From: a virus
Lineage: Duplodnaviria > Caudoviricetes
DNA: 64,000 bases
IMG/VR virus record: IMGVR_UViG_3300029288_007089
Location: 1-64,000 of that record
Reading direction: 5' to 3' (one strand)
Shown here: in pieces, positions 2,231 through 55,394 of the stretch
How positions within the stretch are numbered: position 1 is the stretch's first letter
Layout: the number at the start of each line of letters is the position of its first letter
Notes under the pieces: generated by a model
What the model was told of the DNA's origin: nothing
The model's database searches: none
What the model saw: only the letters and a program-made list of their open reading frames with translations
Program-made: the position numbers and the translations under genes

Positions 2231-3476
2231 GCGCCACCCCCGCCGGCAGGCGCTTACGGTCCACGATGCGCCAGAGGTCGATGACGGTTTGCCCCGCGCG
2301 GTACTGTACGCTGGCGAATTCGGCGTAGGGCAGCGCGACGATGACGGTATCCGCCTCGTCTACCACCGCCTGCGCGCTGTCGCGGTACTCGACGCCGGCC
2401 AGGTCGGGGCGCGCCTTCGGATCGTAGGCAAGCACGGGCGCGTCTTCCTCGCCTAGCAGCCACGCCACCTCAAGCGCCTGGCTCTCCTCGGTAACGGGCG
2501 TGCCTGCTTTGTACGCCAGGCCCAGGATGCCCACGCGCCCGCCGGCGCGGTCTACCGCCGCCATCACGCGGTCGATCTGCGCCTCGTTGTTGTCCGCCAC
2601 CGCGCGCGGGAGCGCGCCATCGACGCCCAGCGCGCGCGCCAGGTAGCCCATCGCGCGGATGTCGCGCGGGAAGCACGGGCCGCCGGCGCGCCCACCGGCG
2701 CGCAGGAATTTCGGCCCGATGCGGCCGTCCGCGCCGATTGCGCCCGTTACCCGGTCCACGTCCGCGCCGGGCAGTCGCTCGCACATCTCGGCAAGCCAGT
2801 TGGCGTAGGCGATGCGCTGCGTGAGCGCGAAGTTGAGCGCGATTTTGGCAAGCTCGGCGTCCACGATGCTCATACGGTGTACGGCGGGGTTGTTCTCGCA
2901 CACGCTGCGCACCAGTTCCTCCAGCGCGTCGCCGGCGCGCCCGTCGTGTTCGCCAATGACCACCATGTCGGGGTCGAGGAAGTCCCGGATCACCGTGCCC
3001 AGCGCGACGAACTCCGGCAGGTAGCAGAAGCCAAAGCCGTTGCCGGCGCTCTTGCCGCTCGCCGCCTCCAGCGCCGGGAGCACCGCGCGCCGGATGTCGC
3101 CGGGCAGCACAGTAGACATCTGCACGACGAGATGATAGCCGCGCTTTTCCGCCAGCGCCGCCCCGACCTGCTGCATGGCGCGCAGCACGTGGTCGAGGCG
3201 AAAGAACCCCGCCGGGTCGCTGGGCGTGGGCACGATCACGAACGTCGCGTCGGTATGCGTTACCGCGTAGTGCGCGTCGGTCGTCGCCGCCAGTCGCTCC
3301 CCCGCGTCGGCAAGAAGTACGCCCAGGCCCGGCTCGTCGTGCGGCGCTGCGCCCCGATTCACCGCGTCCACGACGCTCGCTTTGAGGTCCACGCCGACGA
3401 CCTCCAGGCCCTGCGCCGCCAGCGCCGCCGCAAAACAACAGCCGAGCTTGCCCAGACCGAGCACGGAGACTTTCAC
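2208..3476 (-). CDS. UDP-glucose/GDP-mannose dehydrogenase family protein
   Basis: GLGKLG Rossmann motif, IVPTP, PEF, AELAKIALN, GGPCFPRD catalytic Cys motif, ILGLAYK. Confidence 0.92.
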   Translation of the reverse strand: MKVSVLGLGKLGCCFAAALAAQGLEVVGVDLKASVVDAVNRGAAPHDEPGLGVLLADAGERLAATTDAHYAVTHTDATFVIVPTPSDPAGFFRLDHVLRAMQQVGAALAEKRGYHLVVQMSTVLPGDIRRAVLPALEAASGKSAGNGFGFCYLPEFVALGTVIRDFLDPDMVVIGEHDGRAGDALEELVRSVCENNPAVHRMSIVDAELAKIALNFALTQRIAYANWLAEMCERLPGADVDRVTGAIGADGRIGPKFLRAGGRAGGPCFPRDIRAMGYLARALGVDGALPRAVADNNEAQIDRVMAAVDRAGGRVGILGLAYKAGTPVTEESQALEVAWLLGEEDAPVLAYDPKARPDLAGVEYRDSAQAVVDEADTVIVALPYAEFASVQYRAGQTVIDLWRIVDRKRLPAGVAHVAFGRG

Positions 3477-3892
3477 GTCGGTTCCTCCAGTCGCGTCATC
3501 TGCACCGCGTAGTTTTGCTGCACGGTGAAATTCGTCTCACTATCCGCCAGCGGCGTGAGCACCATCGTCGCGTTGAGGCGCGCATAGGCGTCGGGGTCGT
3601 CGGTGCGCGTGTAAATCGTCACCGTGCCGCTGTAGTTGCCGCCGCAGTAGGTATCGTTGAGGTATTCAAACTGGCGGCGCGTCATTTTGCCGAAGAACCA
3701 CGTCAGCGACGGGTAGCCGGTGAAGAAGATGGAGCCGTCGCCCTGCGCGCGCGGCTCACCCTTGCGGTACGTGCCCCAGGCGCGCGGCGGGTAGAAATAC
3801 ACGTCGTCAGTGGGCTTGATCGCCTCGATGTTCGTGAGGCTACCCAGTGCAACGTTGTGGCCCTGCGCAATGCGGTAGTCGTAAATGGGCAT
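3473..3892 (-). CDS. Putative tail protein (distal-tail position)
   Basis: 139-aa ORF immediately downstream of the tape measure gene; function inferred from synteny only. Confidence 0.5.
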   Translation of the reverse strand: MPIYDYRIAQGHNVALGSLTNIEAIKPTDDVYFYPPRAWGTYRKGEPRAQGDGSIFFTGYPSLTWFFGKMTRRQFEYLNDTYCGGNYSGTVTIYTRTDDPDAYARLNATMVLTPLADSETNFTVQQNYAVQMTRLEEPT

Positions 3893-3900
3893 ATCGCCGC

Positions 3901-6336
3901 CTAGTTAAAGTAATGGTCCATCGTGCGCACCACGATGCGCTGCACGGCGTCGGCGGTCAGCTGCGGGCTTTGCGCGCCGTCGATGTTGAACGTCAGCGCA
4001 ACGTTGCCGCGCCGCCCCGCGTTCACCATGCCGGCCTGCGCGGGAAAGAACAGCCCCATGCCCGGCGGGAACTGCGCGGTGCGCCCGCCGGCGGTGAACG
4101 TCTCGCGCTGCCCCGCACCCTCGTTCACCAGCGCCCACTCCCCCGCCGCCAGCGGCCCGCCGGCCTGCCGGCGCGAGCCGCCGTAGGTCGAAAACGTCCC
4201 CGGCGTGGCCTGCGCGGGCATACTGATGCGCAGCGCGGCGCGCGCAAACGCGGCGGCGGTGCCCTCCCACAGCCCCGAAAGCGCGGCCAGCGCGCGGGCG
4301 CTCTGCGTGGCGATGATCTCCGCTTTGGCGGCTTCGGTTTGGTTGATGAGGTTGATTTCGTCGATCAGCCCCTTGCGGCGCGCGTCGAGCGCCTGCCGGC
4401 GCGCCGTCGCTTCCTCGGCAAGCGCGCGCGCGCGGTCCGCCGCCGCCTGCGCCAGCGCCTCGCGCCGCTGCTGCTCGATCTGCGCGCGCTCTTTGTAGTA
4501 CGCCGCCTGCGCGTCGGCAAGCGCCTGCTGGTACTGGCGCAGCCGCTCCCGGCGCTGCTCCTCGGCGTGGCGTGCGGCGTCCTCGCGTTCGAGCTTGTAT
4601 TCCTCCTGCCGCTCCTTGCGCTCGCGCACGAAGTTGCGGTTCGCCTCTTCAAGTTGCCGCGTGGTGTCGCGGCGCGAGCGGTAGAGGCCGGCGAAGTCGC
4701 GCGCGGCGATCAGGTCCGCCTCGCGGTCCTGCGCGGCGCGGCGGATGTCCTCCAGGTTCTGCACGTGATCGCGGTAGGCGCGCGCCTCCTCGCGCTGGAA
4801 GGCGATCTGCCGCTCCAGGTCCTCGCGCTGCAACTGCCGCGCCGCTTCCGCCTCGCCGCGCGCAAAGTCCTCAGCAAGCTCGGCGCGACGCTCCTGGAGT
4901 TTCGCCAGCGCGTCGGCGGCGGCGTCGGCGGCGTCCTGGGCAATCTCCACCAGGCGGTCGTTGTACGCCTTCTGAATCGCGGCGCGCTGCGCCAGCGACG
5001 CCTCTTCGATGCGCGCCACGTCCGTGTCGTACTTGGTCATTGCGCCGGCCAGTTGCTCGGTGCGGCGCAGGTTCGCCTCCAGCGTCTTTTGGAGCGCGTC
5101 GGCGGCGCGCGCCTCTTTTTCGCGCGCCTCGGCGAGCGGCAGGATGACCTCCTGGAGAAAGATGACCTCCGCCTTCTCTTTCTCGTACAGGTCGATCAGG
5201 CGGTTCATTTCGTCGCCGATTTCTTTATTCCACACGCCGGAGTCTTTGAGCGCCTGGACCTGCTCTTCGAGGACGCGGATGTATTCCTGACTTTCGGTGA
5301 TGGCGTCGCGCGTGCCCTCAACCGTCGCGGTGCGCATGAGGCGCGCGCGCTCCATCTCCGTGCGCGCTGCTGCCTCTACGCCGGCGATGACTTCCTGCGT
5401 GCGCTGTCGCTCTGCCGCCGCTGCGTCATTGGCCGCCAGCGCGCTTTCGTCAAGCACGCGCGTGTAGGCGTCTACTGCCGCCTGCGCCTGGAGCACGGCC
5501 TGATCCGCCGCATCCATCGCCGCGCCGTAGTCCTCAACGCCGGTAGCGCTGACGCCAAAAAGCGTGCGGATACGCGCGCCGAGGTCGCCGAGCGCGATAC
5601 CCGATTCGCGCTCCCACGCTGCCGCCTCCTGCTGGCGCAGCGCGTCGCGGTAGGCCAGCGCCGCCTCCAGATCGTCGTTTGCCTTCTCCAGTGCCTCGGC
5701 GGCCTGCTGTGAGGTCATGTCGCGCAGCGCCGCGTAGTAGAGCTTGAGCGAGTCGATGGCGACCTGCGTCGCCTGCCGGCTCTCTTTGTAGGCTTCGTTG
5801 GCGAGCACGACCGCGCCGGATACCGCCGCCGCGCCGATGGCAAGCGGGCCGAGCACCGAACTGAGCACGCCCGCCGCGCCGCCGACCTGCGCCATCTCCG
5901 CGCGCATCATGCCCATCGCGTCTACCGCGCCGATGATGTCCGCGCCGAACATCAGGCCCGCGCCCAGGCCGCCGCCCGCGCCGCCGAGCAGCTGTGAGAC
6001 GCCCATCAGCGCCATCTCAGAGCGGCCGATGTCGAAGCCACGCTTAGATGGGGCGCTGGCCGCCGCGCTGGACTGCGAGAGCCGCTTTGCCGCCTTCGCG
6101 GAGTCGTCAAGGCGCTGGCGCAGGCGGTCTACCTTCTTGGCGGTGGCGTCGGAATAGTCGCCGAGGCGGTCAACGTCTTTGCCGGCGGCCTTCGCGTTCG
6201 CGCCGAAGTCGGCGCGCAGCGCCTTCGCCACGCCAGCAGCGGCGCTTTCTAGTTTGGTAAGCGCCTGCTCGCTTTTAGCGAACGACTGGCGCTCCGGCTC
6301 AATTGCCAGCAACGCGCGTACAGTTTCGTCAGCCAT
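3901..6336 (-). CDS. Tail tape measure protein
   Basis: 811 aa, Ala/Gly-rich then long coiled coil, C-terminal AGGPLAAGEWALVNEGAGQRETF motif; follows the tail chaperones. Confidence 0.85.
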   Translation of the reverse strand: MADETVRALLAIEPERQSFAKSEQALTKLESAAAGVAKALRADFGANAKAAGKDVDRLGDYSDATAKKVDRLRQRLDDSAKAAKRLSQSSAAASAPSKRGFDIGRSEMALMGVSQLLGGAGGGLGAGLMFGADIIGAVDAMGMMRAEMAQVGGAAGVLSSVLGPLAIGAAAVSGAVVLANEAYKESRQATQVAIDSLKLYYAALRDMTSQQAAEALEKANDDLEAALAYRDALRQQEAAAWERESGIALGDLGARIRTLFGVSATGVEDYGAAMDAADQAVLQAQAAVDAYTRVLDESALAANDAAAAERQRTQEVIAGVEAAARTEMERARLMRTATVEGTRDAITESQEYIRVLEEQVQALKDSGVWNKEIGDEMNRLIDLYEKEKAEVIFLQEVILPLAEAREKEARAADALQKTLEANLRRTEQLAGAMTKYDTDVARIEEASLAQRAAIQKAYNDRLVEIAQDAADAAADALAKLQERRAELAEDFARGEAEAARQLQREDLERQIAFQREEARAYRDHVQNLEDIRRAAQDREADLIAARDFAGLYRSRRDTTRQLEEANRNFVRERKERQEEYKLEREDAARHAEEQRRERLRQYQQALADAQAAYYKERAQIEQQRREALAQAAADRARALAEEATARRQALDARRKGLIDEINLINQTEAAKAEIIATQSARALAALSGLWEGTAAAFARAALRISMPAQATPGTFSTYGGSRRQAGGPLAAGEWALVNEGAGQRETFTAGGRTAQFPPGMGLFFPAQAGMVNAGRRGNVALTFNIDGAQSPQLTADAVQRIVVRTMDHYFN

Positions 6337-16474: not shown

Positions 16475-17631
16475 GCCGCTTTCCACCCTTCCAGCGCCCG
16501 CTCCGCAATCACGCGCAGCACGGGCATGGCGTATTTGCCGATCACGTAGTCGATGTCATAGTCGCGCGCGCCCTCAATCGCGCGCCGCCGGCGCTCCGGG
16601 TCGCCGCGCTCCAAATACGCCGCCTCCAGCGTCTCAACGATTGACGCAATACTGGGGCCAATCCAGAAGGCGTTTTGTTCGCTCCACTCCGGATCGCCCT
16701 CCACGAGCCAGCCGCTAAAGTTCAATTCTTTCTGCGCGCCGAAGTCGGTAGTGATGACGGGGCAGCCGGCGCGCTGGAATTCGAGCACCGGCAGGCCAAA
16801 GCCCTCACCCCGGCTCGGCGCAATGAGCACATCGCTCGCCTGCGCCAGCGTCGCCAGTTCGCGCGCCGGGATGCCGGTGCGGTACCGGTACTGGTCGGCA
16901 ATGCGCACGCGCTGTGGGTCGAGGCCGAGCGTCTTGATGATAACCGGGATGTTGACGCCGCCGAATACCGACGTGAGCAGGTTGCCCGTCTCAGACGTGT
17001 GCAGGTACAACATGGCGTCGGGGTACGTCTGCGCGAACATCTGCCACGCCACCAGCAACTCAGGGATGCCCTTCCTGCTTGGCACGCTGTCGTTGACGCC
17101 CACGAAGGACACGAGAAACACATCATCGGCCAGTCCCAGCGCCTTGCGTGCGGCGCGGCGGTCGCCGGGCTGCCACACCGCCGGGTCAACGCCGTGCGGC
17201 AGGTAGTAGCTCTCATGGCCGGCTACGCGCAGTTGCCGCTCGCCCCAACGTGTAAGCGCAATCGGCGCGCGGCACGCCGCCAGCGCGTTTGTCACCCGTT
17301 CCGGCACGGGCTGGCGATCAATGGGTGTGATGGGATACCAGGGCATGTGGCGCATGATTTCGGGGTTCAGTCCCCAGGCGTCGATGAGAGAGATTGCCGC
17401 GTCGGCGCGGAAGTGCGCCGCGTGCCCGTGAATAATGTCGCTGCCCAGTGGGTCGAGCGCCGGCGGGAGCACCTTGACGCCTTCGACCAGCGCCGGCAGG
17501 CTGCCTGCGCCGATGCCCAAATTGAACACGGCGACCTCGTGCCCCAGGCGCTTCAGGCGCGGCACGAAAAGGCGCGACTGGATGCTATAGCCGGACTGCG
17601 AGGTGAAGTTAGCCGCCCAGAGTATGCGCAA
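16471..17631 (-). CDS. Glycosyltransferase family 4
   Basis: HGVD, RKGIPELLVAW, DVLIAPSRGEGFGLPVLEFQRAGCPVITT. Confidence 0.92.
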   Translation of the reverse strand: MRILWAANFTSQSGYSIQSRLFVPRLKRLGHEVAVFNLGIGAGSLPALVEGVKVLPPALDPLGSDIIHGHAAHFRADAAISLIDAWGLNPEIMRHMPWYPITPIDRQPVPERVTNALAACRAPIALTRWGERQLRVAGHESYYLPHGVDPAVWQPGDRRAARKALGLADDVFLVSFVGVNDSVPSRKGIPELLVAWQMFAQTYPDAMLYLHTSETGNLLTSVFGGVNIPVIIKTLGLDPQRVRIADQYRYRTGIPARELATLAQASDVLIAPSRGEGFGLPVLEFQRAGCPVITTDFGAQKELNFSGWLVEGDPEWSEQNAFWIGPSIASIVETLEAAYLERGDPERRRRAIEGARDYDIDYVIGKYAMPVLRVIAERALEGWKAA

Positions 17632-17953
17632 TTGTGTCGCCTCCCAACGTCCAACCGCATTCGGGGCACCGGATGATGCCAGGGTTGTTGTGTTCGTCTA
17701 CGTTCGTGAGCGCCGCGCCGCAACGCGGGCAGGTATCGGAGATGGATAAATCGCCGGCTAGTGAACTTACCAAGCGCGGCGGCGACGGTACCCACGGCGG
17801 TGGCGGCATCATCCGTCCCTCCCGCCACGCCTCGCACGCCTTGACGACAATGTAGGACACGCTGCGGTCGTCACGCGCGGCTTCCGCTTCCAGCCACGCC
17901 AGCAGGTCGTCGGGGAAGGATATGCCTCTTGCGGTCGTTGTGCGTTTGCTCAT
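17609..17953 (-). CDS. Ribbon-helix-helix protein with C-terminal zinc ribbon
   Basis: RGISFPDDLLAWLEAEAARDDRSVSYIV; CPRC...CPEC. Confidence 0.7.
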   Translation of the reverse strand: MSKRTTTARGISFPDDLLAWLEAEAARDDRSVSYIVVKACEAWREGRMMPPPPWVPSPPRLVSSLAGDLSISDTCPRCGAALTNVDEHNNPGIIRCPECGWTLGGDTIAHTLGG

Positions 17954-18056
17954 TATAGACAAAGCGCCCACTGCACTTACTGCCGGCGGGCGCTCACGGG
18001 CGCACAGATGTTCAAGTCACAGTGTAGCACGGAATTGCAGCGCGTGCAAGTCACAG

Positions 18057-18232
18057 GTCACGGTGCGCTATTCTGAGATTCGCCCACTGCAACTGCAGCA
18101 CAGAACCACACCTCGGCGGGATGTCACAGTGCGCTATTCTGAGATTCGCCCACTGCAACTTTTGCGCAACATCCTCAGGCAGAAACACAGTGCAGGTCAC
18201 AGTGCGCTATTCTGAGATTCGCCCACTGCAAC
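18057..18232 (-). CRISPR. CRISPR array 1: three 37-nt repeats GTTGCAGTGGGCGAATCTCAGAATAGCGCACTGTGAC, spacers of 36 and 29 nt
   Basis: Repeats at 18196-18232, 18123-18159 and 18057-18093 (last has one mismatch); directly downstream of the RuvC nuclease and scaffold. Confidence 0.9.
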
Positions 18233-18380
18233 CCCAGTTGCAGTGCCGTGCAAAGCACGGAGTTCGGTCCAAAGCCGCCGCTAGTGGCGCGTTTTGACGC
18301 GCCAGGAACGCCGGGCGTCCCGTCTGGTCTTACGCGCGGCCCCAGGCCCAGGATGTGTGACTGCATCCTGTTCTCAAACC
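18233..18380 (-). ncRNA. Omega/tracr-like scaffold RNA fused to the first repeat
   Basis: Anti-repeat CACTGCAAC (plus 18237-18245) joined by TGGG to the repeat start GTTGCAGTG; stems covary with the second copy at 55211-55357. Confidence 0.8.
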
Positions 18381-19802
18381 TCATTTGGTTGTTAAAGTAC
18401 TGACGTTTGCGAAACTACGATGGAACTCCCGATAACCTCCCTCCCAGTCTGCCTTGCGGTACAGCGCGCGGCGCGCAATGTTCACCGCCGCGTTGTCGTC
18501 AGAGTGGCCGGCATAACCGCACGCGCCGCAAGTCACACTGCGGTCGTCGCGGTCCATGTCCGCGCCGCACTTGTGGCAGATCACCGAACTATAGGCGGCG
18601 AACACGCGCCGGAACGGGACGCCGGCCAGCTTGCACTTGTACTCCAGGATACGGTCGAGCTTGCGGAACCGGCTCACCACGCGCCCACCGCGTACCTGCA
18701 CGTTGAGGTCTTCGACCACGATGCCGGCCTGCGCATTCTGCGCCGCGCCGATCAGCGTATTGGCGAGCGTGTGCAGGATGTTGTCGTAGGCCTTCTGTTT
18801 GTAGTGACGCTTGGTGATCTTCTGCCCGTTGCGCGCCAGTTGTTCGCGTTCCTTGCCGTGCTTAAGCTGAAGCGCGCGTAAGTCATCGTCGAAGTGCCCC
18901 ATCTCCAGCACCGCGCCGGTCCCGTCCACGAGCGCATACGCGGCGGTGTACAGGATGCCCTTGTCGATGCCCAGGTACGCCGCCGGCTCGTAAACGTCGG
19001 GGCACTCAACCTCAAACGTGACGTGCAGCGCATAGCCGGCGTCGCGCTTCACCAGGAACGCCGCCTTCACGCGCCCCGCCCCGTCGCGGCTCGGCTGCAA
19101 GAATTTCGCCTCGTGCCAGCCGTTGCGCCCGATCTCCAACGGCACAAGAATTGCCGAGGCGCTATTGCTCTTGAATACCTCGCCGGTATCCAGGCGCACA
19201 AGATTATCTGCGCTTGCGCCGATGGGCCTTGTCAGTTCATGGCCCTTCGGTAGCAACCACAGCGCCGCGATAAGCTGGCGCTTTTGTGTGTTCCACAAAA
19301 GAGAGAAAAGGCGATTTCGTGCCGCACCATCTGCCCCGCAGAAATAGAGTGGCATGTATTGGCCGCGCATCCGCATGAGCATGAGGTTGCGCGCTTCGTT
19401 GTAGTCGGCTTCGTCGCCGCCTACAAGAACGAAGTCATCAAGCGCATTGTCCACCGCGTCGGGTGCGGGATCGCGCCCTACCGGAAAGCCGGTTGCGCCG
19501 GCCATGCCATCGAGCGCATAGTAAGATGCGAGGTTACCAGCCACGTCCACAAGTAGGCTGTCTTTGGCGCTGGTGTGTAGTGCGGCATTGGGGCGCGGCA
19601 GGAGCGACATTATGGCCTTGCCGTTGTACTTGTCGCGGTACATGCCCTGTTCGCGCAACAAGTCGTCATTGTCGCGCGCCCAGTCCAACATAGCTTGATA
19701 TGCCAGCGTGTATTCACGCAGTGCGTGATCCATCACCGCCGTTTTATGCGCGGAGGGATTGTGGACTTTGAAAATGCAGGTTAGGTGGATAGAATTGCTC
19801 AT
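18381..19802 (-). CDS. tnpB: Compact TnpB/Cas12f-like RNA-guided RuvC nuclease (473 aa), apparently intact
   Basis: RuvC-I YLGIDKG, RuvC-II IVVEDL, CHKC...CGAC zinc finger, RuvC-III HSDDNAAVNIA. Confidence 0.9.
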   Translation of the reverse strand: MSNSIHLTCIFKVHNPSAHKTAVMDHALREYTLAYQAMLDWARDNDDLLREQGMYRDKYNGKAIMSLLPRPNAALHTSAKDSLLVDVAGNLASYYALDGMAGATGFPVGRDPAPDAVDNALDDFVLVGGDEADYNEARNLMLMRMRGQYMPLYFCGADGAARNRLFSLLWNTQKRQLIAALWLLPKGHELTRPIGASADNLVRLDTGEVFKSNSASAILVPLEIGRNGWHEAKFLQPSRDGAGRVKAAFLVKRDAGYALHVTFEVECPDVYEPAAYLGIDKGILYTAAYALVDGTGAVLEMGHFDDDLRALQLKHGKEREQLARNGQKITKRHYKQKAYDNILHTLANTLIGAAQNAQAGIVVEDLNVQVRGGRVVSRFRKLDRILEYKCKLAGVPFRRVFAAYSSVICHKCGADMDRDDRSVTCGACGYAGHSDDNAAVNIARRALYRKADWEGGYREFHRSFANVSTLTTK

Positions 19803-19866
19803 GCTCTGACTCTCGGTAGTCGGAGGGCCGGTGGGCGTTGCTGCGCCGCGACCGGCACCGCGCATT

Positions 19867-19914
19867 ACTATAGCACAAATGGTCTGACTGCGCAAATAGA
19901 TTCTGTGGTATACT
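19867..19914. promoter_or_regulatory. Divergent promoter pair: TTGCGC-17-TATAGT toward the nuclease (minus) and TGgTATACT (plus)
   Basis: actata 19867-19872, gcgcaa 19890-19895; tatact 19909-19914. Confidence 0.55.
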
Positions 19915-37816: not shown

Positions 37817-38831
37817 GTTGTGCCCTCTTTTCGGCTAGCCAGTCGTCAGTCTCAACCGCGAATGCGTCCTTCGCCAGCACCCACAACAACTCTGCGTTCT
37901 GTAGCGCGTAGTGGCGCTGCGGCGAGGCGCGCGCCTCGCCGGTGGTGAACAGCCGCGCGAAGAGCGGCCACTGCGCCCGCGCCAGCTCGGACAGGTAATG
38001 CGTCGGCGGCTCGTAGGGCTGCCCGTCGCAGAGCGTGCGCGCGTGCACCGCCCGCGCGCAGTTGACCAGTTCGGCCCAGGCGTCGGGCGAGAGTTGGGCG
38101 AGCGGCGCGTATTTGTTGGGTGGTGGCACGCGCGACTCGACCTGCCGGATAAAGTGCCCCGTCATGGCGTCGTCGGGCACCTTACCGGCGGCATTGTCCG
38201 CAACCGTCTTAAGCCACCAGCCCATCAAGAACCAGTTAGGGTATTCGGTAGCGACGATGTCTTGCGCCTTCGTACCCCAGTCGAGACCGAAGCCGCGCAT
38301 GAGGAGAATCTTCTGATAGTCCGAATTCGACGACGACGGTGCGCGCGCGTCGCCATTTGCGCGCTCCGCGCCTATGGTGTCGTTATTATGGGTTGGTTCA
38401 GATGGGATAGTTCTTGTGACACCGGTGACACTAGGGGTAGTGTCATGGGTGACACTAGGGGTAGTGTCATGGGTGACACTAGTGTCATGGGTGTCACGCT
38501 TTCGAGGCTCATTCCATACCGTATAGACATTGGAATCGTAACGGCGCGTAGCAGGATCATAGCGGCGCTCGATGTCAACGTAGCCCGCGCATTCTAGCTC
38601 CTTGATGAGCCGAATGATCGTGCGCCGGCTAAGCCCTATATCTTTGGCGAGGCGTGTCATGCCTGGCCAGGCTGCCTGTTCTGAGTTCATGTATCCGCAA
38701 ATATTGGCATACAAAAGCCGTGCGCCTTGTGAGAGTGTCGTATCCCTAATGCACGCGACAGATACCGACGCCTTCCAGGGATCACCGCTCTTCAGTGTGC
38801 CATGTTCTGCGACCTCATCCGTGTTGCTCAT
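37788..38831 (-). CDS. Phage replication initiator (N-terminal winged HTH)
   Basis: LSQGARLLYANI...AWPGMTRLAKDIGLSRRTIIRLIKELECAGYV; internal iterons; precedes dnaB. Confidence 0.8.
   Translation of the reverse strand: MSNTDEVAEHGTLKSGDPWKASVSVACIRDTTLSQGARLLYANICGYMNSEQAAWPGMTRLAKDIGLSRRTIIRLIKELECAGYVDIERRYDPATRRYDSNVYTVWNEPRKRDTHDTSVTHDTTPSVTHDTTPSVTGVTRTIPSEPTHNNDTIGAERANGDARAPSSSNSDYQKILLMRGFGLDWGTKAQDIVATEYPNWFLMGWWLKTVADNAAGKVPDDAMTGHFIRQVESRVPPPNKYAPLAQLSPDAWAELVNCARAVHARTLCDGQPYEPPTHYLSELARAQWPLFARLFTTGEARASPQRHYALQNAELLWVLAKDAFAVETDDWLAEKRAQHEPAERETS
38416..38497. repeat. Palindromic iteron-like tandem repeats (probable origin)
   Basis: gtgacactaggggtagtgtcatgg at 38425-38448 and 38449-38472, plus a shortened copy at 38473-38490; each holds tgacact/agtgtca inverted arms. 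Confidence 0.75.
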
Positions 38832-50449: not shown

Positions 50450-50556
50450 TTGCTAAGGGACAACGGAGCGATTTTTTGTTCGCGGTAACAAGCCGCTCTT
50501 TGGCGCAAATCGTTCCGTCCCTTAGCAAGACGCGAACAGCCAGAGGGCGGCTTGTT
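50450..50556 (+). ncRNA. Interlocked three-helix 5' leader RNA upstream of the tnpB remnant
   Basis: Pairings 50450-74/50507-28 (22 bp), 50477-84/50531-38 (8 bp), 50487-504/50539-56 (18 bp). Confidence 0.65.
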
Positions 50557-50572
50557 GTTTAGGAAAATAATC

Positions 50573-50941
50573 ATGCTGGTGCGCAGCTACAAATACCGAC
50601 TGTATCCTACACCAACGCAAGTGCGCCGCTTGTTCGCAATGTTGCGCCTGTCGCGCCTACTCTACAACCACATGCTGGGCTATCGAGAGGAGGAGCACTC
50701 CTCATGGGCGCTAAGCCGCGTAAGACTTCATGATTTCATGAAGCAACGGTTTGCCCGAAAGCTCCGTTATTATGCGGAGAGTGCTATGGCGAACGCTAAG
50801 CTGTGTAAGACGCCGCAATTGCGCGGCGCGGTGGTTAGTTCGCAAATCTCTGCCAATCCGGAGCAGCTGGAGGTCTGCGACGCGACACACTCTGCCGGCA
50901 TCGAAGAAACGCCATATCTGGCGGAGACGGCGGCGCGATGA
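50573..50941 (+). pseudogene. tnpB: Internally deleted IS605-type tnpB (only the N-terminal HTH is recognisable)
   Basis: MLVRSYKYRLYPTPTQVRRL...SRLLYNHML; no RuvC motifs; another frame gives a C-terminus-like RGGALLMGAKPRKTS* ending at 50733. Confidence 0.75.
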
Positions 50942-50956
50942 CCGCCACCGGTGGCT

Positions 50957-51213
50957 GTTGCAACCGTCAACCTCCGGAGGTGGAGGGTGCTAGCACTATG
51001 GACGGTGGCTGGTCTGGGATGGCCGGCGTTGTTGCAACCGTCAACCTCCGGAGGTGGAGGGTGCTAGAGCCGTCAGACTTGCCGAGACGCGCCAAGACGA
51101 ACTTGTTGCAACCGTCAACCTCCGGAGGTGGAGGGTGCTAGAATGCCGCACCTCCGGCCACAGATACGCGGTAAGCGTTGCAACCGTCAACCTCCGGAGG
51201 TGGAGGGTGCTAG
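50957..51213 (+). CRISPR. CRISPR array 2: four identical 37-nt repeats GTTGCAACCGTCAACCTCCGGAGGTGGAGGGTGCTAG, spacers of 37, 37 and 35 nt
   Basis: Repeats at 50957-50993, 51031-51067, 51105-51141 and 51177-51213; orientation inferred from the upstream promoter. Confidence 0.93.
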
Positions 51214-52632: not shown

Positions 52633-53619
52633 ATGATCCTCTTAATATCGTGCGCGTCTATTCTGGTGGTGCTCAACCTCGCCTCGTCGCGCGGTTCACC
52701 GCCAGTCGGGTTAGCCGCACCGAGGATCACGAACACCGCGTCATCTACTTGGACATCTACACCGATCCCGCCCCCGACGATATTGCCGACGCGCACACCG
52801 ACGCCAATCCCGACCGTGACGCCGTTCCTGACCTGGACACCGCCGCCGACATGGACACCGCCGCCGACATGGACGGCGATACCGACGCAGAAGGCGACGG
52901 CGACGTGGACGCGGGAGCCGACGCCAACAATCCCATCAGCCGACACCGCGCCGCCCGCCGCGCAGAACGGGCCTATTTCGATAACGCAGCGCGCCTCGCC
53001 GGACTTCCCAGAGCGCCCGGAGCCTGCACGTTCGTCTGGCGAGACGCGCCCGGCGCTGAGGGAAGTTGAGGTTATCATAATCGTGCTTGGCTTAGCAACA
53101 CTTCTGGGAATGCCCACGCTACAACGTGCCTGGCAGATGCGGGACGTGCGCCCGGTGAACCACTGGCGGCCGGAGCCGGCGCGCGCGGAGCCGTCCGGCT
53201 ACGTTGACCGTTGGGACGTGTACCGCAAATGGCGCAACTGGCTGCGCGCGGTCATTGTCTATGGTGCGGAGCATGGGTTCAGCCGGAGCACGCTGTACGA
53301 CTACTTCCGCCCGCGCTACCCGTTCGCGTCGCAGGCGTTGATATACCGCACGGTGAGCCTGCTCGCGGACACCGACATTCTGTACACCAGCCAGGGACGC
53401 GAGACGGTGCTGCTCGTGACAGTGGGGGAGGCGGTGAAACAGACGCGCGTGCGGTTCGGGCGCGAGACGCAAGAGTTCCCCTTCCCTACCGACGATCCCT
53501 TCGGGCCATTCGAGGTGCGTACCGTCCCTGAACAGGTTAAACAAGTTGAACAGGTTAAACAGGTTGAACAAGCTGAACAAGTAACTATCGCGAAATCGGA
53601 GGGCGAAAATGACGGATGA
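52633..53619 (+). CDS. Membrane protein with Pro/Thr-rich linker
   Basis: Hydrophobic N-terminus, TPTP/WTPPPT repeats, second TM segment, EQVKQV repeats; an overlapping alternative frame starts at 52422. Confidence 0.5.
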   Translation: MILLISCASILVVLNLASSRGSPPVGLAAPRITNTASSTWTSTPIPPPTILPTRTPTPIPTVTPFLTWTPPPTWTPPPTWTAIPTQKATATWTREPTPTIPSADTAPPAAQNGPISITQRASPDFPERPEPARSSGETRPALREVEVIIIVLGLATLLGMPTLQRAWQMRDVRPVNHWRPEPARAEPSGYVDRWDVYRKWRNWLRAVIVYGAEHGFSRSTLYDYFRPRYPFASQALIYRTVSLLADTDILYTSQGRETVLLVTVGEAVKQTRVRFGRETQEFPFPTDDPFGPFEVRTVPEQVKQVEQVKQVEQAEQVTIAKSEGENDG

Positions 53620-54990: not shown

Positions 54991-55036
54991 GCGGCGGGGC
55001 GAGCAGCCCGCACGCACGGCTGGCGAGGAGGTTGCC

Positions 55037-55210
55037 ATGAACGACGAAGAACTGCGCGCCGCCGGCGCGTGCGGCTATGCCGGCCATTCTGACGACAACG
55101 CGGCGGTGAACATTGCCCGCCGCGCGCTGTACCGCAAAGCGGATTGGCCCGGTGGCTATCGGGAGTTCCATCGTAGTTTCGCAAACGTCAGTACCTTTAC
55201 AACAGAATGA
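55037..55210 (+). pseudogene. tnpB: Chimeric ORF: 5' end of a phage gene (MNDEELRA) fused to the last ~48 codons of the 18-kb nuclease homolog
   Basis: GACGYAGHSDDNAAVNIARRALYRKADWPGGYREFHRSFANVSTFTTE vs ...KADWEGGYREFHRSFANVSTLTTK; homology starts at ~55063. Confidence 0.9.
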
Positions 55211-55394
55211 GGTTTGAGAACAGGGTGCAGTCACACACCCTGGGCCTGGGGCTGCGCGTAAGACCAGAGGGACGCCCGGCGTTCCTGGCGCGTCGAAACG
55301 CGCCACTAGCGGCGGCTTTGGGCTGAATCCCACGCTTTGCGTGGCACCGCAACGCAGGTTGCGGTGGGCGAATCTCAGAATAGGCCATTGTGAC
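55211..55394 (+). ncRNA. Second copy of the scaffold RNA ending in a single repeat variant
   Basis: Colinear with the reverse complement of 18196-18380; repeat GTTGCGGTGGGCGAATCTCAGAATAGGCCATTGTGAC at 55358-55394 (4 differences). Confidence 0.85.

Follow-up and report, generated by a model that had tools for sequence, protein, structure and literature searches.

Does a compact nuclease gene in a temperate phage, followed directly by a structured RNA and a short repeat array, belong to a transposon, to a CRISPR system or to something between the two? The question is raised by a locus in IMG/VR virus record IMGVR_UViG_3300029288_007089 (Duplodnaviria; Caudoviricetes), a 72.6-kb provirus of which the first 64,000 nucleotides were analysed here (the window, to which coordinates refer unless a locus is named). 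A sequence-only reading of this DNA had described a compact TnpB-derived, Cas12f-like nuclease with its own guide scaffold and mini-array, and this description was borne out, active site included, by invariant residues and by fold and profile matches. We consider it probable that the locus encodes a type V-like system for RNA-guided cutting of DNA, carried by a phage and without adaptation genes, and that it belongs to a distinct TnpB-derived family whose nearest solved relatives are the Cas12f enzymes.

The nuclease

The nuclease gene (18381-19802, minus strand) was called as an open reading frame (ORF) of 473 aa and is supported by homologues, fold and profile; the homologues begin alike, confirming the start codon. 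The three RuvC acidic residues and the zinc finger noted earlier correspond to D280, E364 and D435 and to the cysteines C409, C412, C425 and C428. All seven are invariant in 21 aligned homologues and align with the RuvC-I, II and III and CxxC motifs of TnpB and Cas12f structure chains. The sole Pfam match is the Cas12f1-like TNB domain, and the nuclease shows the Cas12f combination of RuvC triad, TNB zinc finger and a size within 400-700 aa.

An AlphaFold2 model of the nuclease (predicted local distance difference test score, pLDDT, 84) had AsCas12f and OsCas12f as its best fold matches (E ~1e-17, template modelling (TM) score 0.52-0.61), followed by CasX, CnCas12f1 and TnpB. A family profile searched against PDB sequences had its match to AsCas12f in the RuvC half (75 bits, E 3.5e-20). 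The PADLOC models for Cas12f, Cas14b and Cas12u3 gave 50-82 bits, mostly over the C-terminal half only. In NCBIfam no curated family cut-off was passed by the nuclease: the best match was guided_TnpB (91.5 bits, cut-off 100), and scores for Cas12f2 (NF049972; 74.4 against 450 bits), IS607_TnpB (42.5 against 350 bits) and IS200_TnpB (35 against 425 bits) did not reach their thresholds. On these profile, fold and cut-off results, the nuclease appears to form a TnpB-derived lineage of its own, which belongs to no curated family and lies closest to the heterogeneous Cas12f/V-U3 grouping. Close kinship to two other candidates was rejected, as the Cas12p structure 9jfs ranked 45th by fold (TM 0.36) and was absent from the sequence matches, and LaTranC reached only 24.5 bits with the family profile.

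Scaffold RNA and its contacts with the first repeat

The gene ends in a TGA stop codon, and a 148-nt non-coding sequence resembling a trans-activating CRISPR RNA (tracrRNA) or omega-RNA lies directly 3' of it, from the base after the stop (18233-18380, minus strand). This is the structured RNA of about 150 nt that had been proposed to start at the stop codon, and both folding and comparison uphold it. Together with repeat 1 and the nine bases upstream (194 nt folded), the scaffold reached -88.2 kcal/mol, with z = -4.3 against shuffles. In an alignment of 12 scaffold-repeat units, 88% of cells were paired, as against about 37% in slid controls, compensatory changes were seen in 21 of 37 pairs, and none of 500 shuffles reached the observed score. 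The well-supported elements are stem 1, a long-range stem closing the variable middle, a GCUUUGC hairpin and a pseudoknot between the stem-1 loop and the tail of the repeat. A further closing helix, joining the 5' flank of the scaffold (stop codon included) to the middle of the repeat, was present in the single-sequence fold with a mean z of about -1 across units, and is not claimed because of this weak support. No known RNA family was matched in an Rfam scan of the window.

The pseudoknot is the strongest RNA-structure result, and the contact is kept family-wide. Stem 1 (18349-18370, minus strand; 7 bp, supported by covariation) bears the loop GTCACA at 18361-18356, which pairs with the last six bases of the repeat, TGTGAC, adjoining the guide. 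An exact complement of the repeat tail was found in the stem-1 loop of 20 of the 25 family loci, in five sequence versions (GTCACA/TGTGAC, GTTACA/TGTAAC, GTCTCA/TGAGAC, GCCTCA/TGAGGC and GTCGTAG/CTACGAC), and the helix is 100% paired in A3. The family, with about 120 relatives, shows in this way RNA contacts co-evolving with the repeat. The same topology is known for TnpB omega-RNA and for Cas12f guide RNAs.

At the other end of the scaffold, the conserved GCUUUGC hairpin (18246-18260, minus strand; compensatory changes in five of six pairs) is the last hairpin before the array. It is followed at 18233-18245 (minus strand) by the anti-repeat CACTGCAAC (18245-18237) and the loop TGGG (18236-18233), exactly the 9-nt anti-repeat and link to repeat 1 described earlier, assigned here from the fold and from compensatory changes. 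Repeat 1 begins GTTGCAGTG, and these nine nucleotides pair with the anti-repeat as a 9-bp hairpin (duplex z -2.3 to -2.7). The proposal that this hairpin joins scaffold and repeat stands for the present lineage, where pairing is kept by double changes in a second copy of the scaffold in the same genome (copy B), CACTGCAAC/GTTGCAGTG becoming CACCGCAAC/GTTGCGGTG, and by wobble variants and compensatory changes in L098, a locus whose nuclease is 95% identical; an independent 10-bp version occurs in L022. The hairpin is real but lineage-specific, occurring only in some lineages, and the family-wide contact is instead the pseudoknot. Contiguity of scaffold and repeat 1 is itself a family-wide trait, the last scaffold hairpin lying at most 13 nt from repeat 1 in 11 of the 12 aligned units.

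Copy B (55025-55394, plus strand) consists of the last ~59 nuclease codons (to 55210; a tblastn match to nuclease residues 414-472), a scaffold (55211-55357) and one repeat (55358-55394), so that the genome holds one full nuclease copy and one remnant. Copy B shares 89% identity with the main copy, and compensatory changes have preserved the pairing in its stems. Copy B appears to represent a single-guide state in which the flank from 55395 would act as a fixed guide, and purifying selection acts on the scaffold RNA structure, copy B included. An uninterrupted allele of this flank, sought for the reading of a protospacer-adjacent motif (PAM), gave three unrelated 17-mer matches only. Elsewhere in the family, loci L044 and L045 also have a single repeat.

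Array and spacers

The array comprises the three 37-nt repeats that the first reading had recognised, now located by repeat search on the minus strand at 18196-18232, 18123-18159 and 18057-18093, the third with one mismatch; the chance expectation is 0. Between them lie spacer 1 (18160-18195, minus strand; 36 nt) and spacer 2 (18094-18122, minus strand; 29 nt), for neither of which was a target found. The repeats are able to self-fold, 5' GUUGCAGU with 3' ACUGUGAC, and the scaffold contacts would need to displace this fold. Past the third repeat, a by-eye reading on weak evidence gives a decaying distal end (17965-18056, minus strand), made up of a short spacer-like stretch, a shortened, degenerate fourth repeat at about 18043-18016 that ends ...CACTGTGAC at 18016, and an 11-nt fragment of the repeat 5' end at 17975-17965. 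These degenerate distal repeats seem to be the usual picture of array-end decay.

The spacer search that the sequence-only reading had proposed gave no protospacer for either spacer. Spacer 1 had no second match in the 72.6-kb record at up to three mismatches, the two spacers had no exact 20-mer match in IMG/VR, and only chance-level matches were obtained against INPHARED phages. The approximately 110 spacers of the family likewise had no match in any of the fetched loci or in the window.

Proposed mechanism and alternative explanations

Gene, scaffold and array would probably be expressed as one transcript from a promoter-like site at 19867-19895 (minus strand), located in the 290-nt gap after the upstream gene. 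The promoter assigned to the gene by the earlier reading is visible there as a candidate read from the sequence, with a -35 element TTGCGC (19895-19890), a 17-nt spacer, and an extended -10 element made up of TGn (19875-19873) and TATAGT (19872-19867). No minus-strand terminator was predicted between gene and array in a terminator scan, which counts in favour of the proposed system. A ribonucleoprotein would then form as the protein binds the scaffold towards the 3' end of the RNA that encodes it, in the manner of TnpB and its omega-RNA. In this complex the scaffold would hold repeat 1 through the 6-bp pseudoknot, in which the stem-1 loop pairs with the six final repeat bases next to the guide, and, in this lineage, a second time through the 9-bp hairpin between the scaffold 3' end and the repeat 5' end. 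Because of these two scaffold-repeat contacts, scaffold, repeat 1 and spacer 1 would together make up a natural single-guide RNA, spacer 1 being used in cis. Units 2 and 3, which would need the scaffold in trans, and the solo copy at 55 kb may supply further guides. The RuvC site (D280, E364, D435) would cut matching DNA next to a PAM or target-adjacent motif (TAM). Such a nuclease, probably acting on double-stranded DNA, would most likely serve in conflicts with rival phages or other mobile elements and in spread of the cassette by cutting and recombination.

Several observations weigh against this interpretation. The 9-bp hairpin is weak or absent in L021, L032, L044 and L045. The array at the main locus is short, with a mutated third repeat and a decayed-looking distal end. 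The promoter is consensus-like only: the TTGCGC-17-TGnTATAGT site was not called by a consensus promoter scan because its -35 element is weak. Finally, since no protospacer was found for either spacer, the biological role of the system, which the first reading had put as inter-phage competition or host gene control, can only be inferred.

The alternative that survives best is an ordinary split arrangement, in which the hairpin reflects nothing more than a tracrRNA gene lying next to the array. Cleavage between anti-repeat and repeat 1 would separate tracrRNA from CRISPR RNA (crRNA), and all spacers would act equally in trans. Cas12f systems do use separate tracrRNAs, in several relatives the connector pairs with repeat 1 over only 4-6 bp or not evidently at all, and every repeat can fold on itself. 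Against such a split, the scaffold lies close to repeat 1 throughout the family, and the hairpin, where present, is kept by compensatory changes. In addition, copy B, L044, L045 and the first unit of L098 have a single repeat, and therefore only a cis guide is possible there. A 9-bp duplex is also short as a substrate for RNase III. On balance, we judge the split arrangement unlikely for this locus.

A second alternative is that the locus is a decaying or regulatory remnant, either non-functional or encoding an RNA-guided DNA binder or repressor in place of a cutter. The short array with its mutated third repeat and degenerate distal copies, and the spacer searches that returned no targets, would suit this explanation, and Cas12m and TldR are precedents for binding-only relatives. 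Binding-only relatives typically lose RuvC residues, however, whereas here the ORF is intact, the catalytic residues are invariant across the family, and purifying selection holds the RNA structure even in copy B. A remnant is accordingly a very improbable explanation compared with the single-guide nuclease system set out above.

Phage context and family

In the provirus the nuclease locus is flanked by glycosyltransferase genes and by capsid, portal and terminase genes, which adds to the evidence for mini type V systems inside phages' own gene modules. The earlier statement that tnpA, cas1, cas2 and cas4 are missing from the window extends to the whole 72.6-kb record, in which no Y1 TnpA, Cas1, Cas2 or Cas4 was found. 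Homologues of the nuclease numbered 129 in a set of 5.8 billion proteins, and about 48 clusters of a 50%-identity library matched it at E <= 1e-30; in public records its relatives are named "transposase", "TnpB" or not at all. The nearest ESM Atlas clusters are 74-100% viral. Five long family contigs are phage-like, with genes for ERF, RecT, SSB, DnaB, holin, methylases, Thy1 and the like; among the neighbours on these contigs, neither adaptation nor transposase families were reported. The nuclease family is mostly phage-borne, and stands between transposon TnpB nucleases and true CRISPR systems.

Twenty-nine family loci extend 200 nt or more downstream, and arrays were counted in these. Nearly all of them have the same scaffold ahead of an array; in 24, the array begins 130-330 nt past the stop codon and has 2 to 11 or more repeats. 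The roughly 110 spacers are of uniform length (28-39 nt), each unique to its locus except in copies of one contig, and close relatives with 95% identical proteins carry different spacers, showing that the arrays turn over. The least credible explanation of the locus is a plain IS200/IS605-type TnpB element whose right end was duplicated a few times and which is maintained selfishly with no CRISPR-like targeting: guided_TnpB is the best NCBIfam match (below its cut-off), single-guide copies occur with the flank as guide and relatives are publicly named after transposases or TnpB, but the record has no TnpA, there is one full copy per genome, arrays of unique spacers are kept family-wide, and the five contig loci had no transposase family reported nearby.

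Variation in layout was seen in one subclade (L001, L023 and L024), in which the gene is followed by a promoter-like site, the array comes next and the scaffold is last, terminating in the 3' half of a repeat. A fixed single guide therefore lies at the far end of the array.

More distant homologues were found in named phages. In Salinibacter phage B2_17 (L104, OR896349.1), a nuclease homologue and then a run of six to seven 30-nt repeats occupy 2336-3838 and 4391-4808. A 27%-identical homologue annotated as hypothetical is encoded in 182 records of Salinibacter ruber M8 phages, arrays having been checked in the B2_17 record only, and these phages might serve as a laboratory model of mini type V systems in phages. 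Pseudoalteromonas phage J2-1 (L103, MF370964.1) has an unannotated ORF at 2501-3847 that aligns with the nuclease over 94% of its length at 27.5% identity. Downstream of this homologue, no repeat array was found.

Evidence of cassette exchange, and putative single guides

Two family loci, L098 and L099, contain tandem units (L098:2231-2730 and L099:11380-12013), in which unit 1 comprises gene, scaffold and a single repeat and runs straight into unit 2, which has its own scaffold and array. Unit 2 starts with the remnant 3' end of another allele in L098, and with the stop codon only in L099. The single guide of unit 1 is, accordingly, the 3' end of the other allele in L098, and the stop codon plus the scaffold start in L099. 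With one mismatch in its 30 nt, the solo guide of L098 matches both the window nuclease gene (18429-18400) and copy B (55162-55191); that of L099 matches the L100 allele exactly. These tandem units look like cassette replacement by cutting and recombination. The sequences adjoining the two solo-guide targets were inconsistent (...TATCG and ...CACGT), and no PAM is claimed from them. The own allele of L098 differs from its solo guide by three mismatches, which amount to background divergence and therefore give no evidence of self-immunity.

Exchange between sites is also indicated by the leader of the L098 cassette, which is 85% identical to window 50451-50566, the homology to the window cassette starting only at the start codon. 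As the shared leader precedes different genes in the two phages, the cassette has been moved or swapped between sites in related phages.

The leader itself, about 115 nt long (window 50451-50566, plus strand; L098:703-818), lies downstream of a TTGACT-17-TATAAT promoter-like site and had no Rfam match. It precedes a truncated tnpB in the window and the Cas12f-like nuclease gene in L098, and may be a conserved expression site that takes different RNA-guided nuclease genes. At window 50573-51213 (plus strand), the truncated tnpB encodes the N-terminal part of a classical IS605-type TnpB (MLVRSYKYRLYPT...) and is followed, after ~270 nt, by four identical 37-nt repeats. These have only their first six bases, GTTGCA, in common with the repeat of the main locus, and their tail misfits the pseudoknot loop of the main scaffold. 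A single phage genome thereby presents a fused array state, a single-guide copy of the same scaffold and a separate mini-array with a different repeat behind a truncated tnpB.

A bolder and rather doubtful reading is that the cassettes are self-propagating, RNA-guided phage homing elements, seen at the stage when a CRISPR array first arises. In the ancestor, a single omega-RNA would have had neighbouring DNA as its guide; the solo guides of relatives (unit 1 of L098 and of L099) point at the 3' end of rival nuclease alleles. Arrays would then have grown from the right end, the cis-fused first repeat being left as a record of the step from omega-RNA to separate tracrRNA and crRNA.

Relation to known systems

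The system is less novel than the sequence-only reading implied, because V-U6-45, the TranC clades, Cas12r and Cas12p have already been published. Forty array-associated TnpB branches (V-U6-45) have been described, with arrays thought to derive from duplication of omega-RNA segments; the same work notes one case of a half repeat fused with the tracrRNA, as well as RuvC-inactivated clades (PMC10691335). The TranC clades formalise both the transposon-CRISPR intermediate and the split of right-element RNA (reRNA) into tracrRNA and crRNA, and include a phage-borne member (10.64898/2026.03.27.714800). Phage-borne mini Cas12 proteins lacking adaptation genes have also been characterised, namely Cas12r, in the structural cluster of Thermus phages, and Cas12p. 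The kind of system is therefore known, and the family with its cis-fused first repeat is a variant of it.

Among characterised enzymes, the closest comparison is with Cas12f1 (type V-F) of the AsCas12f/OsCas12f branch, which is the best fold and profile match and shares the miniature WED-REC-RuvC-TNB architecture. Both have a long structured guide scaffold, a predicted one here, a repeat of ~37 nt and an array downstream of the gene. The two differ in that identity is ~16% and the sequence alignment covers only the C-terminal half; the present family, moreover, has its scaffold adjoining repeat 1, lies in a phage context and includes single-guide copies. With the omega-RNA (reRNA) of IS200/IS605 TnpB, the family has in common a scaffold that starts at the 3' end of the gene and a pseudoknot next to the guide, together with, in copy B, L044, L045, and unit 1 of L098 and of L099, flanking DNA in the position of a single guide, where the main locus has an array instead. 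Unlike TnpB elements, it is without TnpA or transposon ends, is not multi-copy, has real arrays with diverse spacers and scores below the guided_TnpB cut-off.

TranC and V-U6 to V-U45 resemble the family in their compact TnpB-like effector, stably linked few-repeat downstream array and absence of adaptation genes, and in the occurrence of omega-RNA-like and CRISPR-like guide states side by side, here as genomic states. The family is, however, far from the solved LaTranC, the other clades having been compared by description only. By analogy, it would fit the model in which arrays arise by duplication of omega-RNA segments and RNA splitting, and the locus is a natural case, defined at sequence level, of the step proposed to lead from TnpB omega-RNA to tracrRNA plus crRNA.

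Cas12r of the Thermus Lalka phages, the Cas12p "hacker" and CauTranC9 are likewise phage-encoded without adaptation genes, and a role in conflict between mobile genetic elements has been proposed for these systems. The Cas12r locus also lies inside a structural gene cluster, but Cas12r has 564 aa and needs no tracrRNA, whereas the phage family has a long scaffold fused to repeat 1. Cas12p, described as using tracrRNA plus crRNA, is larger (500-700 aa against 473 aa here). The family offers effectors of ~450-520 aa with a predicted single-guide design (scaffold, repeat, guide) that can be read from the genome.

Other features of the window

The gene directly after the array (17609-17953, minus strand) has its own TATAAT box at about 17961-17956. 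Judged from its sequence, the product is a small ribbon-helix-helix-like protein with a C-terminal zinc ribbon (MSKRTTTARGISFPDDLL...), and could be a regulator. Further along the window, 2.5 perfect tandem copies of a 24-nt unit that contains a palindrome (GGTGACACTAGGGGTAGTGTCATG) were seen at 38424-38497, and six 9-nt units (TGAACAAGT) at 53529-53582; both may be operator or iteron-like sites.

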